NCBI GenBank assembly: GCA_020052095.1
Contig: JAGVPT010000185.1
Coordinates: forward strand, 4,769 to 68,768
Origin: Bacteroidota bacterium
Lineage (GTDB): Bacteria > Bacteroidota > Ignavibacteria > UBA10030 > UBA8401
Reading direction: 5' to 3'
Length of the DNA stretch: 64,000 nucleotides
Every line of letters begins with the position of its first letter. Within the stretch, counting starts at the first letter, position 1. Under the pieces are notes generated by a model, which did no database searches, had not been told where the DNA came from, and saw only the letters and a list, made by a program, of their open reading frames with translations. The translations under genes and the position numbers were made by a program. Below are positions 13,993 to 62,080 of this stretch, one piece after another.

Positions 13993-15018
13993 TTGAAGTA
14001 CAACAAAGGATTACATCGATTTTCGTTCATCACGGTTGCGTGTACCTTCCTCCTCATCATTGCGGGCGGACTGGTTACGAGCACAGGATCGAGTCTGGCG
14101 GTTCCCGATTGGCCTCTTGCGTATGGCATGATCATGCCTCCGATGGTCGGAGGTATTTTGTATGAGCATGGGCACAGGATGCTCGCAACGTTTGTCGGGT
14201 TGTTGACGATTGTCCTTTCGGTTTGGCTATGGAAGAAGGAAGAGCGTCGCTGGTTGAAAATTCTTGGCATCGTTGCCCTCGGTGCGGTTATCACACAAGG
14301 ATTGCTTGGCGGCCTCACGGTTGTTTTCCTGCTTCCGACTGCAATTTCGGTGTCACATGCGACTCTTGCACAGACTTTTTTTGCGATTGTCGCGTCGATT
14401 GCGCTATTCACATCGCGATGGTGGCAATCGGACTATCCCAGATTGGCATCAGAAGGCAGCTTGGCGACGCTCCGGCTTTCATTCTTAACGACCCTTGCAG
14501 TCTTCGTTCAATTGATCTTTGGAGCGCTGATGCGCCATACAGGCTCAGGCCTCGTGGTTCCCGATTTTCCGATGGCGTACGGACAGCTTTTTCCATCTCT
14601 TGGCGCCGAATCACTCGCCCGGTATAATCACGACCTCATCTATTCTGATATTCGGCTTTTTGCCGATGGCGCGGTGACATCGTCCCAAATTGTCATCCAC
14701 ATGCTACATCGGATTTGGGCGGTTGTGGTTGCCGTTCTGATTGTCGCGCTGTCAGCAAATCTGTTAAGGCCATCGAACCTGACTTCTCGGATTAAACGTT
14801 TTGCTTATGCTCTTCCTTTTTTGTTGATCATTCAGATTACACTCGGAGCATACACAGTTCTATCGCGGAAAGCAGTTGAGGTCACCACAGCCCACGTTGC
14901 GACCGGCGCTCTTATCTTGGCAACCTGTCTTCTCGTTTTTCTACATCTTGTAAGAGTTTATCAAGTCCGCTTTAAGAAGTTCTCATTTGTTTATTCCACT
15001 GAAAGAGCGATTGCATGA
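13993..15018 (+). CDS. ctaA: Heme A synthase (COX15/CtaA family)
   Basis: Multi-TM protein with paired His-containing helices, typical of CtaA; positioned between ctaC and ctaB. Confidence 0.8.
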   Translation: MKYNKGLHRFSFITVACTFLLIIAGGLVTSTGSSLAVPDWPLAYGMIMPPMVGGILYEHGHRMLATFVGLLTIVLSVWLWKKEERRWLKILGIVALGAVITQGLLGGLTVVFLLPTAISVSHATLAQTFFAIVASIALFTSRWWQSDYPRLASEGSLATLRLSFLTTLAVFVQLIFGALMRHTGSGLVVPDFPMAYGQLFPSLGAESLARYNHDLIYSDIRLFADGAVTSSQIVIHMLHRIWAVVVAVLIVALSANLLRPSNLTSRIKRFAYALPFLLIIQITLGAYTVLSRKAVEVTTAHVATGALILATCLLVFLHLVRVYQVRFKKFSFVYSTERAIA

Positions 15019-15965
15019 TTGGTGATGCCGAAGCCGTAGCCGTAGCAGCTTTTCCTTATCCACGGTCCACCTGGAAATCTATCGCGGATTACATAGAATT
15101 GATGAAGCCGGAATTGACATCGCTTTCCGTATTGACGGCGCTCTGTGCGTTTTATGTCGCTCACACCGGGATCTGGAGTTCAATAGATACCTGGTTAGTG
15201 ACGAACCTCGCTCTCGGAACAACCCTCGTCGGCGGGGGCGCTGGTGCTCTCAATCAATACCTTGAACGAAAATATGATGGAATGATGAAAAGAACCGAGA
15301 AACGGCCGCTCCCTTCCGGCAGGCTGACTCCGGAAGCTGTCCTCTTTTTCGGAATTTTCATTTCGAGTGCAGGCCTTGTGGAGTTGACGTTTCTCGTGAA
15401 TGGTCTCACCGGATTTCTTGCCGTTGTCACTTTGACGACCTATTTATTTCTGTATACTCCGTTGAAGCGGATTTCGCCGATCGCGACGACCATCGGCGGG
15501 ATTCCTGGAGCATTGCCGCCGATGATGGGGTGGGCGGCCGCGCGAAATGGAATTTCATACGAAGTGATTGTATTTTTCGCGATTCTCTTTTTGTGGCAAA
15601 TGCCCCACTTTTTTTCATTGGCGTGGTTGTACAAGAAAGATTACGCGCGCGCCGGCTACAAATTGCTGACCGTCGAGGATGAGTCCGGCACAAAAACATC
15701 GCGCCACATTCTGGCGAATTGTGCGGCGCTTATCCCGATTAGCCTGATTCCGTCCGTACTCGGAATGACTTCCACCGTGTACTTCATAGGCACATTGGTA
15801 GCGGGGATCGCCTTTTTGTTTTTTGGAATCATGTTCGCGGTTTCATTCTTCTCGACAGAGGGCGACAAGCTCGCGCGGACGAACTTTTTTGCCCGCCGCC
15901 TTTTTTTCGCTTCGCTGGTTTACCTTCCCGTGATTCTCTTCCTAATGGTGATCGACAAGAGATAG
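15015..15965 (+). CDS. ctaB: Protoheme IX farnesyltransferase (heme O synthase, UbiA family)
   Basis: UbiA-family motifs (NQYLERKYDGMMKRTEKRPLPSGRL, D-rich loops); 4-nt overlap with ctaA. Confidence 0.9.
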   Translation: MIGDAEAVAVAAFPYPRSTWKSIADYIELMKPELTSLSVLTALCAFYVAHTGIWSSIDTWLVTNLALGTTLVGGGAGALNQYLERKYDGMMKRTEKRPLPSGRLTPEAVLFFGIFISSAGLVELTFLVNGLTGFLAVVTLTTYLFLYTPLKRISPIATTIGGIPGALPPMMGWAAARNGISYEVIVFFAILFLWQMPHFFSLAWLYKKDYARAGYKLLTVEDESGTKTSRHILANCAALIPISLIPSVLGMTSTVYFIGTLVAGIAFLFFGIMFAVSFFSTEGDKLARTNFFARRLFFASLVYLPVILFLMVIDKR

Positions 15966-15976
15966 GTTGCGAAAAA

Positions 15977-16007
15977 GCTATCCGATTGCTATCAGCAATC
16001 GGATAGC
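15977..16007. repeat. 31-bp perfect palindromic repeat (copy 1 of 4): GCTATCCGATTGCT-atc-AGCAATCGGATAGC
   Basis: 14-bp perfect inverted arms with a 3-nt loop. The same element recurs at 22453, about 24258 and 61951. Confidence 0.8.
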
Positions 16008-16013
16008 TACGAA

Positions 16014-16068: not shown

Positions 16069-17016
16069 ATGAATGAATCTATAGTCATCGTTTCGGATTT
16101 AACACACGACTACGCGGAACGCCGCGCCCTGGATAACGTCTCCCTCGCTATCGCCAAAAATGAGATTTTCGGTTTCCTCGGGCCAAATGGCGGTGGGAAG
16201 ACGACAATGTTCAAGATACTCTCCACTGCGATAACGCCGACAAGCGGCCGCGCTGAAGTGTGCGGGTACGATGTTGTCAAACGTTCATCCGAAGTGCGAA
16301 GGCATATTGGCGTCGTGTTTCAATCGCCGAGCCTCGATGTCAAGTTGACTGTGAGGGAGAATCTGCGATTTCACGGACTTCTTCACGGATTGCATGGAAC
16401 GACGGCCTCGCAAAGAATTGACGACGTGCTGATCCATCTGAAGCTCGTCGACCGAGCGCATGATACCGTGGAGATGCTTTCCGGGGGCTTGCAACGGCGA
16501 GTCGAAATTGGAAAAGGCTTGCTTCATCGTCCTGATGTTCTCATTCTTGATGAACCGAGCACGGGACTCGACCCGGGGGCGCGGCGAGATCTGTGGGACT
16601 ATCTGCTTCAGCTCCGCAAGGAGACCGGGGTTACGGTTGTCGTCACTTCTCATATATTGGATGAAGCCGAACATTGCGACCGCCTCGTGATTCTCGACAA
16701 AGGAAAACTTGTCGCTATCGGAACGCCGGATAAGTTGAAACGAGAGGTCGGCGGCGAGGTCATTTCAATTGTAGCGAAAGATCCTGCTGAGGCGCGCATC
16801 TTGCTGAAAAGGAAATTCAAGCTGGCATCGACAATCGTGGAGAACACAATTCGCGTCGAAAAGAACAACGGGCATCAATTTGTTCCGAAGATTGTGGAGG
16901 CCTTCCCGGGTAAAATCGAAGCCATCTCTGTGGGAAAACCGACGCTCGAAGACGTCTTCATTCATCACACAGGACACAGAATGCGAAATGAAGAATCGAG
17001 CGGGGTGGATACGTAG
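16069..17016 (+). CDS. ABC transporter ATP-binding protein (ABC-2 exporter type)
   Basis: Walker A GPNGGGKTT, ABC signature LSGGLQRRV, Walker B LILDEPSTGLD, H-loop. Confidence 0.85.
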   Translation: MNESIVIVSDLTHDYAERRALDNVSLAIAKNEIFGFLGPNGGGKTTMFKILSTAITPTSGRAEVCGYDVVKRSSEVRRHIGVVFQSPSLDVKLTVRENLRFHGLLHGLHGTTASQRIDDVLIHLKLVDRAHDTVEMLSGGLQRRVEIGKGLLHRPDVLILDEPSTGLDPGARRDLWDYLLQLRKETGVTVVVTSHILDEAEHCDRLVILDKGKLVAIGTPDKLKREVGGEVISIVAKDPAEARILLKRKFKLASTIVENTIRVEKNNGHQFVPKIVEAFPGKIEAISVGKPTLEDVFIHHTGHRMRNEESSGVDT

Positions 17017-17052
17017 TGCTGCTCCGAAAAATAAATATTGTGCTTTGAAATG

Positions 17053-17170
17053 TCTTGTCATCCTTCGACGCAGCCGCGACGGTCATCCTGAGCAAGCAGA
17101 GCGCGTCGTCAACGACCCGATGGGTCGTCGACCCGTCGGGAAGGAGGCCGTCGCGGCTTTGCTCAGGATG
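17053..17170. repeat. GC-rich composite intergenic repeat, copy A (short form)
   Basis: Shares tgtcatcc..ttcgacgc and a 39-nt core, cgtcaacgacccgatgggtcgtcgacccgtcgggaagga, with 18909-18947 (36/39 identical). Contains interleaved inverted repeats gccgcgacgg/ccgtcgcggc and catcctgagcaa/ttgctcaggatg. Confidence 0.6.
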
Positions 17171-17290
17171 AGCACCATGATAAGAATGCAAGATTGTTTA
17201 ATTGTCGCGGTACTAGCAACGGGGAGCCTGGAAAGAGAAAAGTATTAATCAAATATCCAACAGCAACCCATTAATCCGAAATAGAAACCA

Positions 17291-18073
17291 ATGAACATCA
17301 CCACAGAAATCGTATTGCCGACATACTCGCTCTGGATGAGGGAGTTGATCCGCTTTTTTCGTCAGAGGAGCAGGATGATTGGCGTGATTGGTTCGCCGAT
17401 ATTGTTCTGGTTCTTCATCGGTTCCGGGCTGGGGAGTTCTTTTCGGATGAGTTCGCCGAAGGGAGATACAAGTTATCTTGAATACTTTTTCCCGGGCACG
17501 CTCCTCCTCATTATGCTGTTCACTGCGATTTTCTCGACGATCTCGATCATTGAAGATAGGAAAGAGGGCTTCCTGCAATCGGTTCTGGTGGCGCCGATTT
17601 CCGGCGCCGGAATTGCACTAGGGAAGATATTTGGCGGCACAACTCTCGCGGTCATTCAAGCGATTATTTTTCTTGCCTTCGCGCCCCTCATCGGCTTTCA
17701 ATTTAGCGTTCTGGAATTCCTTTCCCTTATCGTGTTGCTTTTCGTTATCGCCTTCGGACTAACCGGCCTCGGCTTCCTGATCGCCTGGCGGATGGAGTCG
17801 ACACAGGGGTTTCACGCTATCATGAATTTGTTTCTGATCCCGCTCTGGTTGCTTTCGGGTTCCTTGTTTCCGATGGAAGGGGCCCCGGGATGGCTGCGAG
17901 GAATTATGTCTATCAATCCCCTTACCTATTCCGTTTCTGCCACAAGGCTGATGTTATATCATCAGGCTCGCATCGAACACCCGGGGTTCATTTTTTCAGT
18001 GTGCGTCATTCTCTCATTTTGTGCTATTGTATTTATCGGGTCAATGCTCTCCGTAAGAAAGAAATCAATATGA
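17291..18073 (+). CDS. ABC-2 type transporter permease
   Basis: 260 aa, 6 predicted TM, ABC-2 family-like; downstream of the ATPase. Confidence 0.7.
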   Translation: MNITTEIVLPTYSLWMRELIRFFRQRSRMIGVIGSPILFWFFIGSGLGSSFRMSSPKGDTSYLEYFFPGTLLLIMLFTAIFSTISIIEDRKEGFLQSVLVAPISGAGIALGKIFGGTTLAVIQAIIFLAFAPLIGFQFSVLEFLSLIVLLFVIAFGLTGLGFLIAWRMESTQGFHAIMNLFLIPLWLLSGSLFPMEGAPGWLRGIMSINPLTYSVSATRLMLYHQARIEHPGFIFSVCVILSFCAIVFIGSMLSVRKKSI

Positions 18074-18705
18074 AGTTATCGACCGGTCATATTTCGTTCC
18101 GCACTTTTTTTCTTTGGGGATTACTCGGGTTTGTGATTGCTGCCACCATATTTTCCTTTCTCTACACCGAGATAATATCTCCCGCCAAAAGCTCTCTGCC
18201 GCGTACTGGAATAGTTCCAGAAATCACTCTTACAGAGCGTAGCGGCCGGAAACTCCCGCTCTCCGATCTGAAAGGGAAGGTGTGGATCGCCGATTTCATC
18301 TTCACAAACTGCGGCGGCAGTTGCCCCATCATGACCAGCACAATGGCGAGCTTTCAAGAACAGATTAAGAATGTGAACAATATTGTTCTTGTTTCGTTCA
18401 CCGTCGATCCTGAACGCGATTCTCCTCAAGCCCTCAGCGAATATGCGGAACTCTACAAGGCGTCTCCTTCTCGATGGCTCTTCCTGACAGGGGAGAAGAA
18501 GAAACTGAATTACCTGACGCGCGATTGCTTTCATCTTGCCGTTGCAGCTGATTCCGGATCGACCGTCGAACCAATCGTTCACAGTACGCTATTTGTTCTG
18601 GTCGATAAGCAGGGAGTCATCCGTGGATATTACGACTCAACTGACGAAAACGCGCTCGAGAAGATTGTCGCAGATGCCCGCGGATTGGCATCTGAAAAGA
18701 ATTGA
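18070..18705 (+). CDS. SCO1/SenC family copper chaperone (thioredoxin-like; CuA assembly)
   Basis: N-terminal TM anchor; CGGSCP (CxxxC) motif and a downstream His, as in SCO proteins. Its ATG overlaps the permease stop (ATGA at 18070-18073). Confidence 0.75.
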   Translation: MKLSTGHISFRTFFLWGLLGFVIAATIFSFLYTEIISPAKSSLPRTGIVPEITLTERSGRKLPLSDLKGKVWIADFIFTNCGGSCPIMTSTMASFQEQIKNVNNIVLVSFTVDPERDSPQALSEYAELYKASPSRWLFLTGEKKKLNYLTRDCFHLAVAADSGSTVEPIVHSTLFVLVDKQGVIRGYYDSTDENALEKIVADARGLASEKN

Positions 18706-18722
18706 AGACTATCTCAAAAACG

Positions 18723-18950
18723 CTCTGTCATCCGCCCTTCGACGCTCCCGAGTTCGTCGGTCGACGACTCGACTCGTCGAGGTCTATCGACCCGTCGGGT
18801 CGTTCTACGAATCTACGATTCGTAGAATCGTAGATAGACGACTCGTCGAGGATTGCTCAGGGTGAACAGGTTCCGTGTTCATCCTGAGGTGAGCGAAGCG
18901 AACGCATCGTCCACGACCCGATGGGTCGTAGACCCGTAGGGAAGGATTGA
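18723..18950. repeat. GC-rich composite intergenic repeat, copy B (long form)
   Basis: Same ends as copy A, plus about 130 extra nt containing gacgactcgactcgtcgagg, tcgacccgtcgggtcg and the hairpin ctacgaatc-tac-gattcgtag. Internal segment 18745-18810 matches 22650-22702 in inverted orientation. Confidence 0.6.
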
Positions 18951-19004
18951 TTGGAATGATTTTGAAATAGCTTATAGTCAACTACTCCATCCGAATCGCT
19001 GAGA

Positions 19005-19424
19005 GTGGTGATGGACTTGTCTTTTCTGCCAACCGTGAACGCTTTCTTGAATGGACTGACCGGCGCATTGCTGTTAGTTGGTTATTTTTTTATTCGAAAA
19101 GGGAACCGATCCATACACAAAAGAGTGATGCTGACTGCTTTCTCAACCTCAATCTTGTTCTTAATCTCCTACCTTTACTATCACGCTCACGTCGGATCCA
19201 TCCCCTTCAAAGGAACAGGCGTGGCGCGTCCCGTTTACTTTACAATTCTCGTCTCACATTCGATTCTTGCGGCAGTAATTGTGCCCATGGCAATCGTCAC
19301 GCTATCTCGCGCATTGTCATCCCGATTTGACAAACACAAAAAACTCGCTCGCTGGACGCTCCCAATTTGGCTTTACGTGTCGGTGACAGGAGTGACAGTA
19401 TATGTGATGCTGTATCATCTGTGA
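19005..19424 (+). CDS. DUF420-family membrane protein (CtaM-like oxidase accessory factor)
   Basis: 139 aa, 4 TM, conserved His-containing helices typical of DUF420, which is associated with aa3 oxidase operons. Confidence 0.6.
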   Translation: MVMDLSFLPTVNAFLNGLTGALLLVGYFFIRKGNRSIHKRVMLTAFSTSILFLISYLYYHAHVGSIPFKGTGVARPVYFTILVSHSILAAVIVPMAIVTLSRALSSRFDKHKKLARWTLPIWLYVSVTGVTVYVMLYHL

Positions 19425-19464
19425 AGAACAGACTTAGGTGGACTGAGGGGCCGGAAATGAAAAA

Positions 19465-19493
19465 GGCTGGTCCCGACGTGGTCGGGATCAGCC
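19465..19493. terminator. Bidirectional intrinsic terminator between convergent DUF420 gene and PNP gene
   Basis: GGCTGGTCCCGAC-gtg-GTCGGGATCAGCC hairpin (one mismatch), flanked by an A-run upstream and a T-rich stretch downstream. Confidence 0.5.
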
Positions 19494-19537
19494 TTTGTAT
19501 TGTACGAGCGGTGATGGCGCCGGAGAGATCCGGCCGG

Positions 19538-20368
19538 TTAACCGATATGCAATACAATTTCCGTCAATAGTCTTGTAAAATTGTGCTTCACTCTGTTGGC
19601 GACTTCAGTGACCTCGGCATGGTTTAGCTTGTTACTGCTTAATCCGGTCGCCAAATTGGTGACGCAGGAAATTCCAAGCACCTCCATTCCATAATTCGCG
19701 GCGACGATTACCTCGGGAACGGTGGACATACCGACGGCATCTGCGCCGAAGTTTGCCATCATGCGGATCTCCGCTGCCGATTCGTACATCGGCCCCTTCG
19801 TCCAACAATAGACTCCTTCCTTAAACGGAATGTTGTTTTCGAGCGCAATCGATTGTGCCTTTAAAAGCAATTCATGACTGAATGGGGATCGCCCTCTACC
19901 GGTCTCGTTCGTTTTCCTTCCGATGAGAGGACTTTCAAATGTTGCATTGATGTAATCTTTTATGAACATCAAATCGCCAGGCGAAAGCTGTGGGTTAATT
20001 CCCCCGGCGGCGTTAGTCACAATGATTGTTTTGATGCCGATACGATGTGCGACTTCGATGGGATAGACGACGATATCGTTGTCGTTACTTTCATACAAAT
20101 GAATCCGACCTTGAAACACCATCAGATCGGCCGATGTGCCACTCCCCGATCGGATTTTGCCGAAGAGAATCTTACCGGCATGACCTTCAACTGATGAAAT
20201 TGGGTAATGCGGAATGTTTTTTGTGTCGATCGAAATCTTGCCGATGAGTTGGTTGCCGAAATCCCCGAGGCCCGAACCAAGCACAACGCTGATTGTAGGC
20301 TGCGTCGATATTTTTGATTTGATGTATTCGACGGAAGCGTTGATATGCGATTGATAATCGACGTTCAT
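19538..20368 (-). CDS. Purine nucleoside phosphorylase (PNP family I, PunA/MTAP-like)
   Basis: PNP-I motifs (VVLGSGLG, VEGHAGKILFG, MSTVPEVIVA); 276 aa. Confidence 0.85.
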   Translation of the reverse strand: MNVDYQSHINASVEYIKSKISTQPTISVVLGSGLGDFGNQLIGKISIDTKNIPHYPISSVEGHAGKILFGKIRSGSGTSADLMVFQGRIHLYESNDNDIVVYPIEVAHRIGIKTIIVTNAAGGINPQLSPGDLMFIKDYINATFESPLIGRKTNETGRGRSPFSHELLLKAQSIALENNIPFKEGVYCWTKGPMYESAAEIRMMANFGADAVGMSTVPEVIVAANYGMEVLGISCVTNLATGLSSNKLNHAEVTEVANRVKHNFTRLLTEIVLHIG

Positions 20369-20369
20369 C

Positions 20370-21722
20370 TTATGAGCCTACCAAGATGCCGGCAATAGTT
20401 GCGGTCATTAAAGTGGCCAAACTCCCACCAAGCACGGCGCGGAGTCCGAGGGAGGCGATGTCTTTCTTCCGCTCAGGCGCGAGGGGGCCGATTCCGCCGA
20501 TCTGAATCGCGATGGAGGAAAAATTCGCAAAACCGCAAAGAGCATAGGTTGCCATCATCACTCCCTTTTCACTCATTGCATTTGCTTTTAGAAGGGAAGC
20601 GAGATCGAGATATGCGACGAATTCATTAAGGACAATCTTTGTTCCGAACAAGCTGCCGAAGTGCATGGCATCCGCCCATGGAACGCCGATGCCAACCGCA
20701 AGATATCGCAAGACAAGTCCGAAAATGAGTTGCAGTGAAAGGGGCGCTCCATAATTCGCCTGTAACATTCCGTTCACGTGAAGAAGGTCGCCGACGGCAA
20801 GAAAGAGGTAATTGAAGAGGGCAATGAGCGCGATGAAGGCGAGAAGCATGCCGGCGACGTTGAGCGACAATTGCAGTCCATCTCCTGCGCCGGTTGCAGC
20901 GGCCTCAATCACGTTGGATGCATTTTTTGGAATGTCGAGTTTCACGGTCCCCCTCGTAACCGGCTCGCCTACCTCGGGATAAATTATTTTTGAAATCGCA
21001 AGCGAGGCGGGAGCCGCCATCGTGCTTGCGGCGAGTAACTGCACCGCAAATTTTAATTGTGCCTCCGCCAATGGAATATGGTGCGCCTCGGCAAACGACT
21101 GTCCCAGCATTTGAATGTACCCTGCCATGACGCCGCCGGCGATCGTTGCCATTCCACCGACCATAATGGTGAGGATTTCTGAATTTGTCATTTTCCCTAT
21201 ATACGGACGAATGAACAACGGTGCTTCCGTCTGTCCGACGAAGATATTTGCCGTATTGGAAAGGGATTCAGCTCCGCTCGTTCCCATCGACTTTGCCATG
21301 ACCCATGCCATACCCTTCACAACCAATTGAAGTATCCCCAGATAGTACAGAATCGAAGTAAGTGACGATACGAAAATGATTGTGGGGAGGACTTGAAATG
21401 CAAAAAAGAAGCCAATGCTATCGGGACCAGAATTGATCGCGAGTTTCCCAAAAACGAACTCCGACCCCTTCGTCGTGAATCCGAGCAGGCTTACTACAGC
21501 GCCGCCAAGCCAGTCCACGCTGTCCTTCAACCATCCAAGCGGAAAGAACCATGAACGAAGCGTCTCGCTATGAATGATCAGGATGGCAAAACCGAGCTGT
21601 ATACCCAAGCCGGTGGCCACCAGACGCCAATTTACTCTCCTCTTATTGTTCGAAAAAAGAAAGGCGATTCCAATCAGCAGGATGATTCCTAGAATTCCAC
21701 GAAGCACGGAGATCATATCCAT
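20370..21722 (-). CDS. nupC: Concentrative nucleoside transporter (NupC/CNT family)
   Basis: 450 aa polytopic membrane protein with NupC-like conserved segments (GFTTKGSEFVFG, IALIALFNYL). Confidence 0.75.
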   Translation of the reverse strand: MDMISVLRGILGIILLIGIAFLFSNNKRRVNWRLVATGLGIQLGFAILIIHSETLRSWFFPLGWLKDSVDWLGGAVVSLLGFTTKGSEFVFGKLAINSGPDSIGFFFAFQVLPTIIFVSSLTSILYYLGILQLVVKGMAWVMAKSMGTSGAESLSNTANIFVGQTEAPLFIRPYIGKMTNSEILTIMVGGMATIAGGVMAGYIQMLGQSFAEAHHIPLAEAQLKFAVQLLAASTMAAPASLAISKIIYPEVGEPVTRGTVKLDIPKNASNVIEAAATGAGDGLQLSLNVAGMLLAFIALIALFNYLFLAVGDLLHVNGMLQANYGAPLSLQLIFGLVLRYLAVGIGVPWADAMHFGSLFGTKIVLNEFVAYLDLASLLKANAMSEKGVMMATYALCGFANFSSIAIQIGGIGPLAPERKKDIASLGLRAVLGGSLATLMTATIAGILVGS

Positions 21723-21759
21723 CGTTTATCTCTTCTTCATTTAGTGAAAAAGCTACGAG

Positions 21760-22332
21760 CTATTCTTTGGGAGGTCTGAAACAGAGACGGCAGCGCGCCT
21801 CGTAGAGATCTTTCGCGCCGACCACGACGCGTTCGTGAGAATCGGATGTTCGCTGGGTACGGTCTGCCGGGTTTCCACATACGACACAGATGGCGAGCGT
21901 CTTGGTGATGTACTCGGCAACGGCAAGAAGCTGCGGCATTGGCTCGAAAGGCTTGCCTCGATAATCTTGGTCAAGCCCCGCGACGATAACTCGCTTACCT
22001 TCATTCGCCAGTTGCTCGCAGACGTCAACAATTTTCGCACTGAAGAATTGTCCTTCATCCACGCCGATGACCTGCGCTTCGGAGGAAAGCGCTAGAATCT
22101 CTTCGGCTGTTTCAACGACTGTAGAAATGAGCGATTGTTCGCTATGCGAGACTATGTGATTCGAGCTGTACCGATTGTCTATGCGGGGTTTGAAGATTAT
22201 CACTTTCTGTCGGGCGATCTGTGCGCGCCGCATCCGGCGAATTAATTCCTCAGTCTTGCCGCTGAACATACATCCGGCGATGACTTCGATCCATCCTGTG
22301 TTTTTCGGGTTGGAATGAAGGGTTGTTTCCAT
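21760..22332 (-). CDS. tdk: Thymidine kinase
   Basis: P-loop [11 protein letters not shown] and C-terminal Zn ribbon CVVCG...CRLC. The start is set at the internal METTLHS; the listed ORF start at 22425 adds a non-conserved extension. Confidence 0.85.
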
Positions 22333-22452
22333 TAAGGGGAGTGGATTCTGGTGATATTGACGGTGATTTCCGTGAAAAATATAGAAAAATGGACTCGGAA
22401 AAGCAAGGGAAGGCTGGTGCCTCATCTTGGAGGACTTGCAGCAGTGAACCAG

Positions 22453-22483
22453 CTATCCGATTGCTGCGAGCAATCGGATAGCT
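22453..22483. repeat. 31-bp perfect palindromic repeat (copy 2): GCTATCCGATTGCT-gcg-AGCAATCGGATAGC, plus conserved 3' tail tcgaaactgcaccactgcc
   Basis: Exact arm identity with copy 1. The tail is shared with copies 3 and 4. Confidence 0.8.
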
Positions 22484-22589
22484 CGAAACTGCACCACTGC
22501 CAAGGAAGGCGTTCGATGTGTTGTGTCTCTGTTGTCCTTGAAGAGGGAGAGTCTCGTTGGTGAACTCCATTTTCTCGTTAAGCACCACC

Positions 22590-22760
22590 CCTTAGTCTCC
22601 TCCTCAATGAGGAAGGGCAGGCCCGGCCTGTCCGCTCAACGAGTCGTCTACGACCCTAAGGGTCGGTAGAGCTCAACGAGTCGAGTCGTCGACCGTAGGG
22701 AGTCTTCGACCGTCTTTTTGGCGGACCTGTCCGCCGTCTTTTTGGCGGAAGCGCCAGGGG
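22590..22760. repeat. GC-rich composite repeat, copy C (partial, inverted) with adjacent short direct repeat
   Basis: cgtctacgaccctaagggtcggtagagctcaacgagtcgagtcgtcgacc is about 80% identical to the reverse complement of 18757-18806. Followed by ccgtctttttggcgga repeated twice, around a ggcggac/gtccgcc hairpin. Confidence 0.5.
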
Positions 22761-22840
22761 TGGTGGCAAACAATCCCGCTAGAAGTGTCTCACTTTCCTT
22801 GGGACACGGAGAGCTTCATTGTTGGCTCCCATCGGCAAGC

Positions 22841-24073
22841 TTACTGTAGTGTAATTTTTGTGATTTCCGGCGGGCAATTCACACGGAAGGGGACACCGAC
22901 GGTTCCGATCCCCCGTGTAACATACATTTGGGCATTGTTAAATTTATAGAGTCCCCAAACGTATTTGGAAAATAACGTCGCCGGCGAGATGTACGTGTTG
23001 CCGATCTTCGCAAAAACAACCTGCCCACCGTGTGTATGTCCGGCGAGGGTTAGGTCGATGTTATGTCCGGCGATCGTCTCGAGAAAGTACGGTTTGTGGC
23101 AGAGTAGGATCTTTGGGTTGGAATTCTGGACCGATGATAGCGCGCGGGCAAGATATGTTTCGGGTTTGCCGCTCATCGGAATATCGTCGACCCCAATCAC
23201 GTTAATGAATGAATTTCCTTTGTGAATCTTGACTGCACCGTCCCGCAAAAGCTTGACGCCGCAAGCATCGACTTCTTTTGCCACAACATCCACATCGGCA
23301 AAGTAATCGTGGTTGCCAAGACAGCCGTAGATTCCGTACGGCGCACGTAGGGCGGAAAACGCTTCCGCGAATGGATAGACTTCCTCAGTCTGACTGTTGA
23401 CGAAATCCCCCGGTACGAAAATTATATCGGTTTTCAGATTATTGAGGGCGGCAACATAGTCATCCATCTCCGGCTTTGTCATGAACACGCTGGAATGAAT
23501 GTCGCTCATCAATCCAACAGTGAATCCCTTGAATTCATCCGGCAGATTAGCGATTTGCACGGTCTTTTCAATGATGTCATATTCGTCTCGGTCGATTACT
23601 CCTTTTGCAGCGCCGATAAAGGAATATGCAGACAACGCCACTGCGCCTGTTTTCAAGAAGACACGACGCGACTTGTCAAAATGTTCGTATCCCGGTGTCG
23701 ATTTCATTGCAATAATTTTTCGCTGAAGTGGATGATTGAGTTTTCCTAGCTGATAGATCATGTCAAAGGGAAGTTTGAGAATTCTCAGAATTCCCAGCGC
23801 CAAAAAAATAAAAAAAGTCGCACCATGCCACACATAAAAAGGCAAAACGGCCGCGTAGAGAAAAGGCTTCGAGAACTCAGTCAAGAAGACGCGATGAAAG
23901 AGGAGAACCAGGAGCGGCGCGTTGAACAGAAGGAAAAGAAACGACACAAGGCGCGAAGTCCACGGAGGGATTTTTCCATTGCTCTTGATCGACGAAAGGG
24001 AGCGCTTGTGCAAATACCATTGAATTAGTGTAACCAATATTTGAAAAATGAAAAATCCCGTCGTTCGGTTCAT
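22841..24073 (-). CDS. Membrane-anchored metallophosphoesterase (calcineurin-like phosphoesterase)
   Basis: Several N-terminal TM helices, then GDFV, GNHD and GHTHGGQ metallophosphoesterase motifs. Confidence 0.75.
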   Translation of the reverse strand: MNRTTGFFIFQILVTLIQWYLHKRSLSSIKSNGKIPPWTSRLVSFLFLLFNAPLLVLLFHRVFLTEFSKPFLYAAVLPFYVWHGATFFIFLALGILRILKLPFDMIYQLGKLNHPLQRKIIAMKSTPGYEHFDKSRRVFLKTGAVALSAYSFIGAAKGVIDRDEYDIIEKTVQIANLPDEFKGFTVGLMSDIHSSVFMTKPEMDDYVAALNNLKTDIIFVPGDFVNSQTEEVYPFAEAFSALRAPYGIYGCLGNHDYFADVDVVAKEVDACGVKLLRDGAVKIHKGNSFINVIGVDDIPMSGKPETYLARALSSVQNSNPKILLCHKPYFLETIAGHNIDLTLAGHTHGGQVVFAKIGNTYISPATLFSKYVWGLYKFNNAQMYVTRGIGTVGVPFRVNCPPEITKITLQ

Positions 24074-24250: not shown

Positions 24251-24305
24251 GAAACTGTCCGATTGCTGAGAGCAATCGGATAGCTCGAAACTGTACCGCT
24301 GCCCT
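24251..24305. repeat. Palindromic repeat copy 3 (left arm partly degenerate) with conserved tail
   Basis: gaaactgTCCGATTGCTgagAGCAATCGGATAGCtcgaaactgtaccgctgcc. The arms are 12/14 relative to the other copies, and the tail is identical in pattern to copy 2. Confidence 0.7.
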
Positions 24306-24831: not shown

Positions 24832-24904
24832 GCACCCATGGCTCAATTGGTAGAGCAACTGACTCTTAATCAGTGGGTTCCAGGTTCGAGTCCTGGTGGG
24901 TGCA
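24832..24904 (+). tRNA. tRNA-Lys (anticodon CTT)
   Basis: Hand-folded cloverleaf. Acceptor gcaccca/tgggtgc, D stem gctc/gagc, anticodon stem actga/tcagt with loop cTCTTaa, T arm ccagg-ttcgagt-cctgg. 73 nt, CCA not encoded. Confidence 0.9.
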
Positions 24905-33865: not shown

Positions 33866-34231
33866 GGGGGTGAATGGTTTCGACGAGGTCGAAGATGGTT
33901 GGACATAAGCATACCGTGCTCTCCGAGTTGCACGTAAATAAAGCGGAAACAATACAAGTGCAGACTACAACTACGCACTCGCTGCTTAATTAAACATTAA
34001 GTGGCGCATCTTCTTGAGACCCCGCCTGGCGGGTTTCTTGTAAGGTGTCGACTTCAGCCAGGCGTGCTAATATCCATGCTGGTGCGATATTGGCGAGAGC
34101 AAATCCCAGATAGCTTTGAGCATGGCGAGTTCATCCTGCCGGCTCCGGGCGAAATCGCACGAGATGAACTGAGTATGGAGAAGGTCTAATGGTCGTCACT
34201 TCGGACCGGGGTTCGAATCCCCGCACCTCCA
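33866..34231 (+). ncRNA. ssrA: tmRNA (ssrA), tag peptide ...ADYNYALAA
   Basis: 5' end GGGGGTGAATGGTTTCGACG (tRNA-like domain with the GGnTTCGACG box). 3' end GGACCGGGGTTCGAATCCCCGCACCTCCA pairs with the 5' acceptor (one G-U). Internal tag ORF gca-gac-tac-aac-tac-gca-ctc-gct-gct-TAA ends in YALAA*. Confidence 0.8.
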
Positions 34232-34265
34232 CGACGTTTTACGCCTCACCACTACTGCCATTCGA

Positions 34266-61751: not shown

Positions 61752-61837
61752 TACCAAAGGTCGGACTCGAACCGACACCTGGGGTAAGCCAGACTGGATT
61801 TTGAGTCCAGCGCGTCTACCAATTCCGCCACTTTGGC
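61752..61837 (-). tRNA. tRNA-Leu (anticodon CAA), type II with long variable arm
   Basis: Hand-folded. Acceptor gccaaag/ctttggt (one G-U), anticodon stem ctgga/tccag with loop ctCAAaa, long variable arm, T arm gtcgg-ttcgagt-ccgac. 86 nt. Confidence 0.85.
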
Positions 61838-61950
61838 TTATTCGTATCATAATATAAGCAACTTAGTCTGGCAAGGCAAGAGTTTTTCGGGTGATAGTAA
61901 GCTTTTCGACGTAGCTTCCATTCTCGGCGTAGGAACGATGTCACGAACAA

Positions 61951-61981
61951 GCTATCCGATTGCTGAGAGCAATCGGATAGC
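61951..61981. repeat. 31-bp perfect palindromic repeat (copy 4): GCTATCCGATTGCT-gag-AGCAATCGGATAGC
   Basis: Identical arms to copies 1 and 2; lies between tRNA-Leu and the TonB-like gene. Confidence 0.8.
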
Positions 61982-62080
61982 TCCTAACCGTACCGGCACC
62001 TTCTTTCGTGTTCATGGTGATTGGTCTAAGCTGCAAGGTCAAACAGCATTACCATGAAACAATGAAATTTTTTCTAGTAA

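Follow-up and report, generated by a model that had tools for sequence, protein, structure and literature searches.

What are the GC-rich composite repeats found between the genes of a cytochrome-oxidase assembly operon, and how did they come to be there? This question was raised by a stretch of 64,000 nt from a Bacteroidota bacterium (Ignavibacteria, UBA10030, UBA8401; assembly GCA_020052095.1, contig JAGVPT010000185.1, positions 4,769 to 68,768), hereafter called the window. An earlier note, made from the sequence alone, had described related repeats at three loci, including one between the ATPase and permease genes of an ABC transporter, and had favored a repeat of the MITE type (miniature inverted-repeat transposable element) or another mobile or selfish repeat. 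All three repeats are found in the sequence, and are here called elements A, B, and C (Table 1). Most probably, they are non-autonomous DNA transposons (MITEs) of nested, modular build that were inserted recently into spacers of housekeeping operons. Defined termini, empty orthologous sites, and a multi-copy family in other genomes support this reading; the opposite outcome named in advance, similarity confined to the three sites with no defined termini, was encountered on neither count.

Three elements and their orthologous sites

Relatives of the source organism were graded by the identity of their permeases: 97% for L065, 91% for L066, 88% for L154, and 79% for L067–L073 (L numbers denote the loci compared). 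The names carried by homologs suggest a source bacterium of the Bacteroidota, similar to Ignavibacteria-Kapabacteria. Deletion of 17016-17215, i.e., element A plus one TA, gives an ungapped alignment of the window with L065. The junction reads ...GGGTACG-TA-GCAAAGAGGAG... in L065, with a single TA (...GGGTACGTA-GCAAAG...), and ...GGATACG-TA-(198 nt)-TA-GCAACGGGGAG... in the window. Because A is flanked by TA on both sides while L065 has it only once, the L065 site is an empty site, and the search for target-site duplications that the earlier note had called for thus yields a duplicated TA at A. The stop codon TAG of the ATPase gene is composed of the TA from the target and a G, the first base of A. 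The terminal inverted repeats (TIRs) of A, GTGCTGC.../...GCGGTAC, are weak, and its interior is occupied by a GTCATCCTGAG...CTCAGGATGA palindrome enclosing a 32-nt double hairpin (see below). A folds end to end (17014-17215) at -84.9 kcal/mol (z -5.3 vs. shuffles), with nine terminal bases paired, including one G-U pair.

The spacer invaded by A is variable among the relatives. The ATPase and permease genes overlap by 4 nt in L067, and are separated by 61 nt in L071 and 63 nt in L066; in L154, the spacer is free of any element. In L065, other palindromes, TGTCATGCCAGCGAAAGCTGGCAT, ATTCCGGCTTTCGCCGGAATGACA, and CCCCGCTTTCGCGGACGTGACA, are found further along the same spacer (L065 1105-1225). 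Since these differ from A, the ATPase-permease spacer is a hotspot with rapid turnover, invaded independently in the window organism and in L065.

Element B is a full member of the family described below, as judged by profile search (nhmmer E 4.9e-26), and A matches the same profile by its interior only (E 2e-11). B folds end to end at -132.3 kcal/mol (z -8.2 vs. shuffles). The TA on its left flank is degraded to T, and the stop codon of SCO1 (18703-18705) overlaps its left end. Thus, the elements are nearly, rather than strictly, intergenic as had been stated: both A and B either border a stop codon or provide one. B is absent from L065, in which the SCO1 stop codon is followed by 5 nt and then by the start of DUF420, where the window has about 300 nt. 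The spacer is about 60 nt in L066 and 4 nt in L067. As L065 also lacks ~30 nt of the ancestral SCO1-DUF420 spacer, the target duplication of B is unreadable there. A sigma-70-like match, TTGGAA-16-TATAGT, occurs in the right TIR of B (18951-18978, plus strand) and reads toward DUF420; such a match is within background expectation, and the consensus is of doubtful relevance in Bacteroidota.

B contains a ~90-nt palindromic module with GACCCGTCGGGTC and GAATC/GATTC palindromes. Canonical family copies read ...TTCGTCGG-GATTGCTC... without this module, while homologs of it are present in L030 and in a 322-nt copy of a Chitinophagaceae metagenome-assembled genome (MAG; L004), the latter with a stretch of 31/31 identical nucleotides. 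The earlier note had counted about 130 extra nt in B relative to A. The extra DNA exists, and is mainly this nested module; B and A also differ by the arrangement of a CTCAGG/CCTGAG hairpin.

Part of the ~90-nt module recurs, inverted, in element C, together with GACCCTAAGGGTC and two tandem CCGTCTTTTTGGCGGA hairpins. C is bounded by TIRs of 9–10 bp, CACCACCCC/GGGGTGGTG, between which it folds end to end (z -5.4 vs. shuffles), and it is absent from the spacer between the thymidine kinase and phosphoesterase genes in the 79% relatives L067 and L069. Its shell is unlike that of B, and its modules are common to B and to “Bacteroidota-type” repeats. Because the termini of C have no homolog in the DNA compared, its status as a transposon rests on the inverted termini, the shared modules, and the absence in the 79% relatives. 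An integron attC site was considered for C and rejected, as there is neither a GTTRRRY end nor an array. The attC sites of integrons have R''/R' cores, RYYYAAC...GTTRRRY, and lie in same-orientation arrays between cassettes, with an integrase gene adjacent. The “Bacteroidota-type” repeats themselves (L038, with three same-orientation copies in 3.4 kb, and L018, L004, L007, L024, L026, L054, and L059) have a conserved frame of >250 nt around GTCAAC-GACCCTTCGGGTCGAAGACCCGTAGGG-AGTCGTAGAC; their ends, GCTCAAC...GTTAGGCGGC (GTTAGGC), resemble attC core sites, and they have no Rfam match.

The three elements are connected by a direct repeat of 57 nt (17089-17145 and 18890-18946, 84% identity) and by an inverted repeat of 46 nt (18758-18803 and 22650-22695), whose 89% identity is above the ~80% given before. 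The GACCC-N3/4-GGGTC sub-palindromes to which attention had been drawn are present at four sites in the window, all in the three loci, against 0.06 expected, and the duplicated sequence noticed beside the inverted copy is CCGTCTTTTTGGCGGA, which occurs exactly twice (22710 and 22734; expected 0.08). The contrast in base composition is also borne out, with a GC content of 0.58–0.64 within the elements vs. 0.38–0.45 in adjoining DNA. Only short, overlapping open reading frames (ORFs) cross the elements. What had been taken for common ends, TGTCATCC..TTCGACGC and CATCCTGAG, is indeed shared, but these are internal segments; the true limits (Table 1) are wider. TIRs, whose presence had been left to be checked, measure ~20 bp in B and its homologs.

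Table 1. Coordinates of the elements, their parts, neighboring genes, and associated features; positions refer to the window unless an L number is given.
Feature	Position	Strand	Remark
CtaA	13993-15018		cytochrome-oxidase assembly cluster
CtaB	15015-15965		cytochrome-oxidase assembly cluster
ABC ATPase	16069-17016		
Left TA of target duplication, element A	17014-17015	.	single TA in L065
Element A	17016-17213	+	198-nt non-coding MITE (probable)
32-nt double-hairpin unit in A	17109-17140	+	TCAACGACCCGATGGGTCGTCGACCCGTCGGG
Right TA of target duplication, element A	17214-17215	.	single TA in L065
ABC-2 permease	17291-18073		
SCO1	18070-18705		
Element B	18704-18974	+	271-nt MITE (probable), TA-GAAGCYATCTCAAAAATG family
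Left TIR of B	18704-18722		
~90-nt palindromic module in B	18760-18849	+	nested in first internal hairpin
32-nt double-hairpin unit in B	18910-18941	+	TCCACGACCCGATGGGTCGTAGACCCGTAGGG
Right TIR of B	18957-18974		
TA right of B	18975-18976		
DUF420	19005-19424		
Nucleoside phosphorylase, then nucleoside transporter	downstream of DUF420	-	
Thymidine kinase	21760-22425	-	
Element C	about 22582-22767	-	~186 nt, bounded by CACCACCCC...GGGGTGGTG
Metallophosphoesterase	22841-24073	-	
Palindrome AGCTATCCGATTGCT/AGCAATCGGATAGCT	15976-16008, 22451-22483, 24255-24285, 61950-61982		within 66-nt family D1
GIY-YIG ORF between hairpin-interrupted tRNA 5' duplicate and intact tRNA	L016 1735-2180, L062 6560-6973	- (L016)	
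Same GIY-YIG/tRNA arrangement	L015, L029, L001/L040, L006, L060		tRNAs Asn, Phe, Ala, Met
~93-aa GIY-YIG ORF with GTCAT...CTGAG palindromes	L159-L163, L164-L167, L168-L169		type I restriction-modification operons; three protein clusters

An unrelated, AT-richer perfect palindrome, AGCTATCCGATTGCT-N3/4-AGCAATCGGATAGCT, is found at four intergenic sites of the window, and is probably the “first family” of the earlier reader. One copy, ~100 nt from element C, is missing from that spacer in L067 and L069. The tmRNA gene (33866-34234, plus strand) and the tRNA genes (24832-24904, plus strand; 61752-61837, minus strand) of the window are unremarkable, without hairpin insertions.

A nested family in other genomes

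Are these repeats peculiar to the window? When 185,579 species-representative genomes were scanned with GACCCNNNGGGTCGNNGACCCGNNGGG, 64 loci were found, while about one chance match is expected under uniform base composition; about six of the 64, from GC-rich DNA of actinobacteria or archaea, appear to be chance hits. Flanks like those in the window are present in the Chitinophagaceae MAG and in a Bacteroidetes MAG, and their alignment reveals a complete unit of about 185 nt. From the left, it consists of TA-GAAGCYATCTCAAAAATG ... CCCTTCGACGC, a hairpin, TTGCTCAGGGTGAAC..GTTCATCCTGAG, and a spacer, followed by the 32-nt core and AAGGAT ... CATTTTTGAGATRGCTTC-TA. Eleven family copies are complete from TIR to TIR, 173–322 nt long with TIRs of ~18–20 bp, and most of them are flanked by TA on both sides. 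The family reaches about 18 loci in a single Chitinophagaceae MAG and about 15 in a Planctomycetia MAG. A profile search of the window retrieves only A and B, C sharing modules only. Size, lack of coding capacity, TIRs, and, for A, a target-site duplication seen against an empty site are those of MITEs. Neither B nor a canonical copy had a match in plasmids (blastn, distant mode), and 2.9 million viral contigs contained no match to the core pattern.

Each element is nested: the TIR shell contains GTCATCCTGAG-type palindromes, and these contain the 32-nt double hairpin, TCnnC GACCC-N3-GGGTC-N3-GACCC-N3-GGG. The unit of A is identical to those of Bacteroidetes MAG copies (L011, L033, L041, and L043). 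One of the copies on a single contig, L043a, reads ...GCGCATCG-TCAACGACCCGATGGGTCGTCGACCCGTCGGG-AAGGATC..., while L043b and L043c read ...GCGCATCG-AAGGATC...; the insertion site of the unit in B, CATCG-unit-AAGGAT, is likewise empty in the latter two. From this comparison, the 32-nt core is a separate unit that is gained or lost precisely, without duplication. In A, the GTCATCCTGAG...CTCAGGATGA arms enclose the core instead of standing beside it, and the same layout is found in the Planctomycetia MAG, where composites of the form GTCATYCTGAG - hairpin - core - GAAGRATCTT..AAGATYCTTC - hairpin - CTCAGRATGAC are abundant. From genome to genome, the three spacers of the core change together (TAC/GTA/GTA, GAT/GTC/GTC, TTC/GAA/GTA, and TAC/GTA/GGA). 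This covariation (TAC:GTA to GAC/GAT:GTC) is suggestive and fits a single 11-bp hairpin, although a model of two short hairpins fits too. A tandem version is also known from Saganbacteria and Ignavibacteria (L006 4100-4185, L010 7470-7540, and L021), where a 16-nt unit is repeated as (GGGTCGAAGACCCGTA)n, giving head-to-tail versions of the hairpin of the 32-nt unit. An H-type pseudoknot in A (X-Y...X'-Y') was rejected as sterically implausible, with stems of ~11 and 13 bp and no linker nucleotide; the layout is better explained by module rearrangement. A CRISPR or other tandem array was rejected for lack of regular spacing.

How would such an element move? The outer shell, with its TIRs, inserts at TA and duplicates it, as is seen for A, and the TA flanks of most homologs of B agree with this. 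As TA duplication is a signature of DDE transposases of the IS630/Tc1-mariner type, the shell is most likely mobilized in trans by such an enzyme encoded elsewhere. The inner palindromes, namely the GTCATCCTGAG...CTCAGGATGA(C)-type hairpin, the 32-nt double hairpin, and the ~90-nt module, which among the window elements is in B only, each have their own history of presence and absence. Since the modules vary separately, the composite look is ascribed to small hairpins that inserted into each other before the shell as a whole was amplified.

Several points weigh against this picture. The TIRs of A are only about 60% alike and lie outside the match to the family profile. Only for A is there proof of a TA duplication, the left TA of B being degraded and its site in L065 not being a clean excision. 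The termini of C have no homolog in any related DNA compared. No transposase with matching TIRs was found among 20 ORFs scanned in the window, nor among the 129 ORFs within 1.5 kb of the units elsewhere (best 25 of 151 families), and the related loci compared contain no long TIR pair enclosing a transposase. The copies of the source genome are known from the 64-kb window alone (A and B, plus C). Finally, the presence and absence of the 32-nt unit could be due in part to precise deletion of a hairpin, not insertion.

Could the 32-nt unit instead be a repetitive extragenic palindromic sequence (REP), or the related REPIN, moved by a REP-associated tyrosine transposase (RAYT) of the IS200/IS605 type, the composites then being mosaics like bacterial interspersed mosaic elements (BIMEs)? 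Insertion without target duplication fits HUH-type chemistry, a point counted for this possibility, and a length of 32 nt and a GC-rich hairpin fit REPs. GTAG occurs twice in most versions of the unit (GGGTCGTAGACCCGTAGGG), and CGTC-type versions are present in the window and one MAG. Indeed, GTAG- and CGTC-tagged REPs have been reported in Planctomycetes, Bacteroidetes, and Chlorobi, as has their nesting in long palindromes (PMC3733652). However, the GTAG or GTCG found here lies between the hairpins and varies (GTA, GTC, GAA, and GGA spacers), and so does not look like the conserved, unpaired tag that REPs have at one end, and no Y1 transposase was found among the recurrent families of the 129 neighboring ORFs (best 25 of 151). 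Near-identity across phyla is also unexpected for REPIN-RAYT systems, which are described as being for the most part passed on vertically within lineages (10.1101/2022.05.22.493013). We therefore regard a RAYT-driven origin as improbable.

Do the elements serve the host? Their folds are very stable (z -5.3 to -8.2), A and B lie within a co-directional operon and are thus probably transcribed, and the module shared by B and C keeps the same sense relative to local transcription. Accordingly, one may think of structured RNAs or operon punctuation selected in place, such as mRNA stabilizers, RNase III sites, or attenuators. This is very unlikely in view of the absence of the elements at orthologous sites in relatives of 97%, 91%, 88%, and 79% identity. 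Furthermore, Rfam 15 at the gathering threshold detects only the tmRNA and tRNAs in the window, a search of 16900-23000 at E<=5 gives no match, and in 30 related loci only tRNAs reach the gathering score. Of the core copies at non-chance loci, 59 of 66 lie outside long ORFs, beside unrelated housekeeping genes that differ in every genome, and their orientation shows no bias (16 co-directional, 11 anti-directional, 7 divergent, and 5 convergent among 39 scorable copies). Promoter and terminator scans of the elements stay at the background level. The host effect appears to be incidental: A and B would put very stable hairpins in the polycistronic mRNA, and translational coupling between the ATPase and the permease would be lost.

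For the source genome, the elements should be masked as mobile repeats, and ORFs overlapping them ignored. The cytochrome-oxidase assembly operon has been remodeled, its ATPase-permease pair, overlapping in at least one relative, now being separated. The elements are an ordinary kind of selfish DNA, of moderate to low interest for the window itself. The locus shows clearly, at base resolution, a bacterial MITE family that duplicates TA and of which the searches made found no description, and it illustrates how “composite” repeats can arise through nesting of very small hairpin units. The cross-phylum 32-nt unit, together with two GIY-YIG families physically tied to hairpin repeats (see below), is worth genome-wide study, and bears on how REP-sized elements without a RAYT move.

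GIY-YIG nuclease genes beside the hairpins

Outside the window, the 32-nt unit has one recurrent neighbor, a small ORF for a GIY-YIG protein (PF01541). The two adjoin each other in 13 assemblies (Omnitrophota, Patescibacteria, Gammaproteobacteria, Ignavibacteria, Saganbacteria, Planctomycetia, and unclassified bacteria), and in 12 of the 13 the unit lies just upstream. In most of these, the 5' part of the tRNA gene located 3' of the ORF is present in a second copy, into which the 32 nt are cleanly inserted. Such fragments are interrupted at varied positions and in both orientations: the sites read GGTAG-unit-CTCA in tRNA-Asn and CCTG-unit-TAGCTCAG, the unit is reversed in GTAGCT-unit-CAGTCGG of tRNA-Phe, and a 66-nt version is inserted in the D-loop of tRNA-Ala. 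The tRNA duplicate stops a few bases 5' of the GIY-YIG start. In L006, a (GGGTCGAAGACCCGTA)n array, described above, occupies the tRNA-Met 5' duplicate upstream of the GIY-YIG ORF.

These associations suggest that GIY-YIG nucleases are partners of hairpin repeats. The hairpin modules, perhaps even whole composites, might be satellites of small GIY-YIG nucleases, parallel to the REP/REPIN-RAYT system: the nuclease would recognize or cut the hairpins and promote their spread, and palindromes without an ORF would derive from it as non-autonomous forms or serve as its preferred landing pads. We hold this only tentatively and think it rather unlikely as an explanation of the elements. In its favor, besides the 13 assemblies from many phyla, the unit is better conserved than the cassette proteins, being 33/33 identical between cassettes whose proteins match the sequence heading the alignment at only ~35–47% identity, and neither a RAYT nor another recurrent transposase was found near the unit (best 25 of 151 families). 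Six cassettes with identical units and one with a GGCCC variant form a single protein clade, and the leader type follows the GIY-YIG protein clade; this tracking may be plain co-inheritance.

The reverse test is against it. Upstream of 80 metagenomic GIY-YIG relatives, the GACCC motif was found in none (0/80), by which the GACCC unit is ruled out as an obligatory cis-element of GIY-YIG cassettes. A same-strand tRNA gene is located within 250 nt downstream in 26 of the 80, and many bear other GC-rich double hairpins of 16–32 nt at the D-arm position, e.g., CCTCTGGCCCTACGGACCATAGGCCCGGAGGG and CCCCGCCnnnGCGGGGTCCCGCTGTGGCGGGA; short hairpins are enriched 5.6-fold in the 100 nt upstream of the 80 ORFs. 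In 29 of the 80 loci (L074–L153), a leader ACCCCCACACC(W) is found ~25 nt upstream of the start, and this leader is typical of a large clade of GIY-YIG ORFs that have no tRNA linkage. The window itself lacks a GIY-YIG ORF, and the TIRs and TA duplication of the shell speak for a DDE enzyme rather than a GIY-YIG nuclease. Furthermore, co-location may simply mean that permissive hairpins are shared, as is the case for insertion sequence (IS) elements with REPs.

A second GIY-YIG family is connected with the larger palindromes. In L017, of the Planctomycetia MAG, a 93-aa GIY-YIG ORF lies exactly in the central-hairpin loop of a GTCATCCTGAG...CTCAGGATGAC composite (GAAGGATCTTAACG-ORF-ATAAGATCCTTC), and ORF-less copies of this composite are abundant in the same MAG. 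This family has thousands of members at 75–89% identity across phyla. In five further contexts (one each in Anabaena and Anaerolineales, and three with the ORF between hsdM and hsdS, or fic), an ORF of this family has GTCAYNCTGAG and CTCAGNATGAC repeats on either side, whose density is 2.16 per kb there vs. 0.011 in other GIY-YIG loci and 0.006 expected. The GTCATCCTGAG...CTCAGGATGAC palindromes are presumably also the source of the common spurious ORFs of the “VILSEAKDL / RFAQND” type.

Conceivably, two widespread families of GIY-YIG proteins (~90 aa) have their dispersed, ORF-less satellites in the GACCC double hairpin of 32 nt and in the GTCATCCTGAG...CTCAGGATGAC palindromes, a proposal that we put forward with low confidence. 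If true, a partnership like that of REP and RAYT would be run by a GIY-YIG enzyme, with insertion, without target duplication, into hairpin loops, i.e., those of tRNA D-arm or anticodon-arm copies or of other repeats. It would also offer a candidate mobilizing enzyme for the tagged REPs that are said in the literature to lack a dedicated transposase. In the literature searched, we found no paper linking GIY-YIG genes with REPs or MITEs.

Comparison with known systems

Free-standing GIY-YIG homing endonuclease genes are well known, e.g., those of the Seg proteins of phage T4. The cassettes described here are like them in being small stand-alone ORFs by or in tRNA genes and in operon spacers, with a patchy, cross-phylum distribution. 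What differs is that a tRNA 5' fragment is duplicated and interrupted by a GC-rich hairpin, or that the ORF lies within the loop of a palindromic repeat. In the literature searched, no dispersed ORF-less repeats were found tied to GIY-YIG homing genes.

The small dispersed repeats (SDRs) of Nostoc and Anabaena, which Elhai and co-workers are said to have described in 2008, are reportedly hairpin units of 21–27 nt that are inserted precisely without target duplication and often lie within each other or within MITE-like hosts. We know of no enzyme assigned to them. The unit described here differs from SDRs in sequence, phylum, and length (32 nt), in its occurrence in at least six phylum-level groups, and in being found repeatedly beside GIY-YIG genes.

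With REPs, REPINs, and BIMEs (PMC3733652, PMC3116915), the unit has in common a GC-rich palindrome of 20–40 nt, often doubled, GTAG and CGTC motifs, tolerated G-T pairs, and sites between genes that run in the same direction or converge. Nesting of REPs within longer palindromes has likewise been described, for example for GTAG-15 of Anabaena variabilis, where the enclosing palindromes are AT-rich (PMC3733652). In contrast to REPs, the tag here appears neither terminal nor invariant and no RAYT is seen nearby; the same 32-mer recurs across phyla, and it resides inside a TIR shell that duplicates TA.

The closest counterparts of the shell are TA-duplicating MITEs, which are likewise 100–300 nt long, non-coding, bounded by TIRs, flanked by a duplicated TA, and intergenic, often within operons. 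They also form an end-to-end hairpin when transcribed, and are present or absent between close relatives. RUP of Streptococcus pneumoniae is such an element, derived from IS630/Tc1-mariner and duplicating TA, and the Correia elements of Neisseria duplicate TA too. The family of A and B differs from known MITEs in its TIR, GAAGCYATCTCAAAAATG, which matched nothing in the text and sequence searches made, literature searches with sequence strings having returned unrelated primers only. It differs also in its interior, assembled mosaic-like from smaller palindromes that are each present or absent in a pattern of their own. It is thus a TA-duplicating MITE family that is new to the searches made and within a known kind, with an unusually clear nested architecture.

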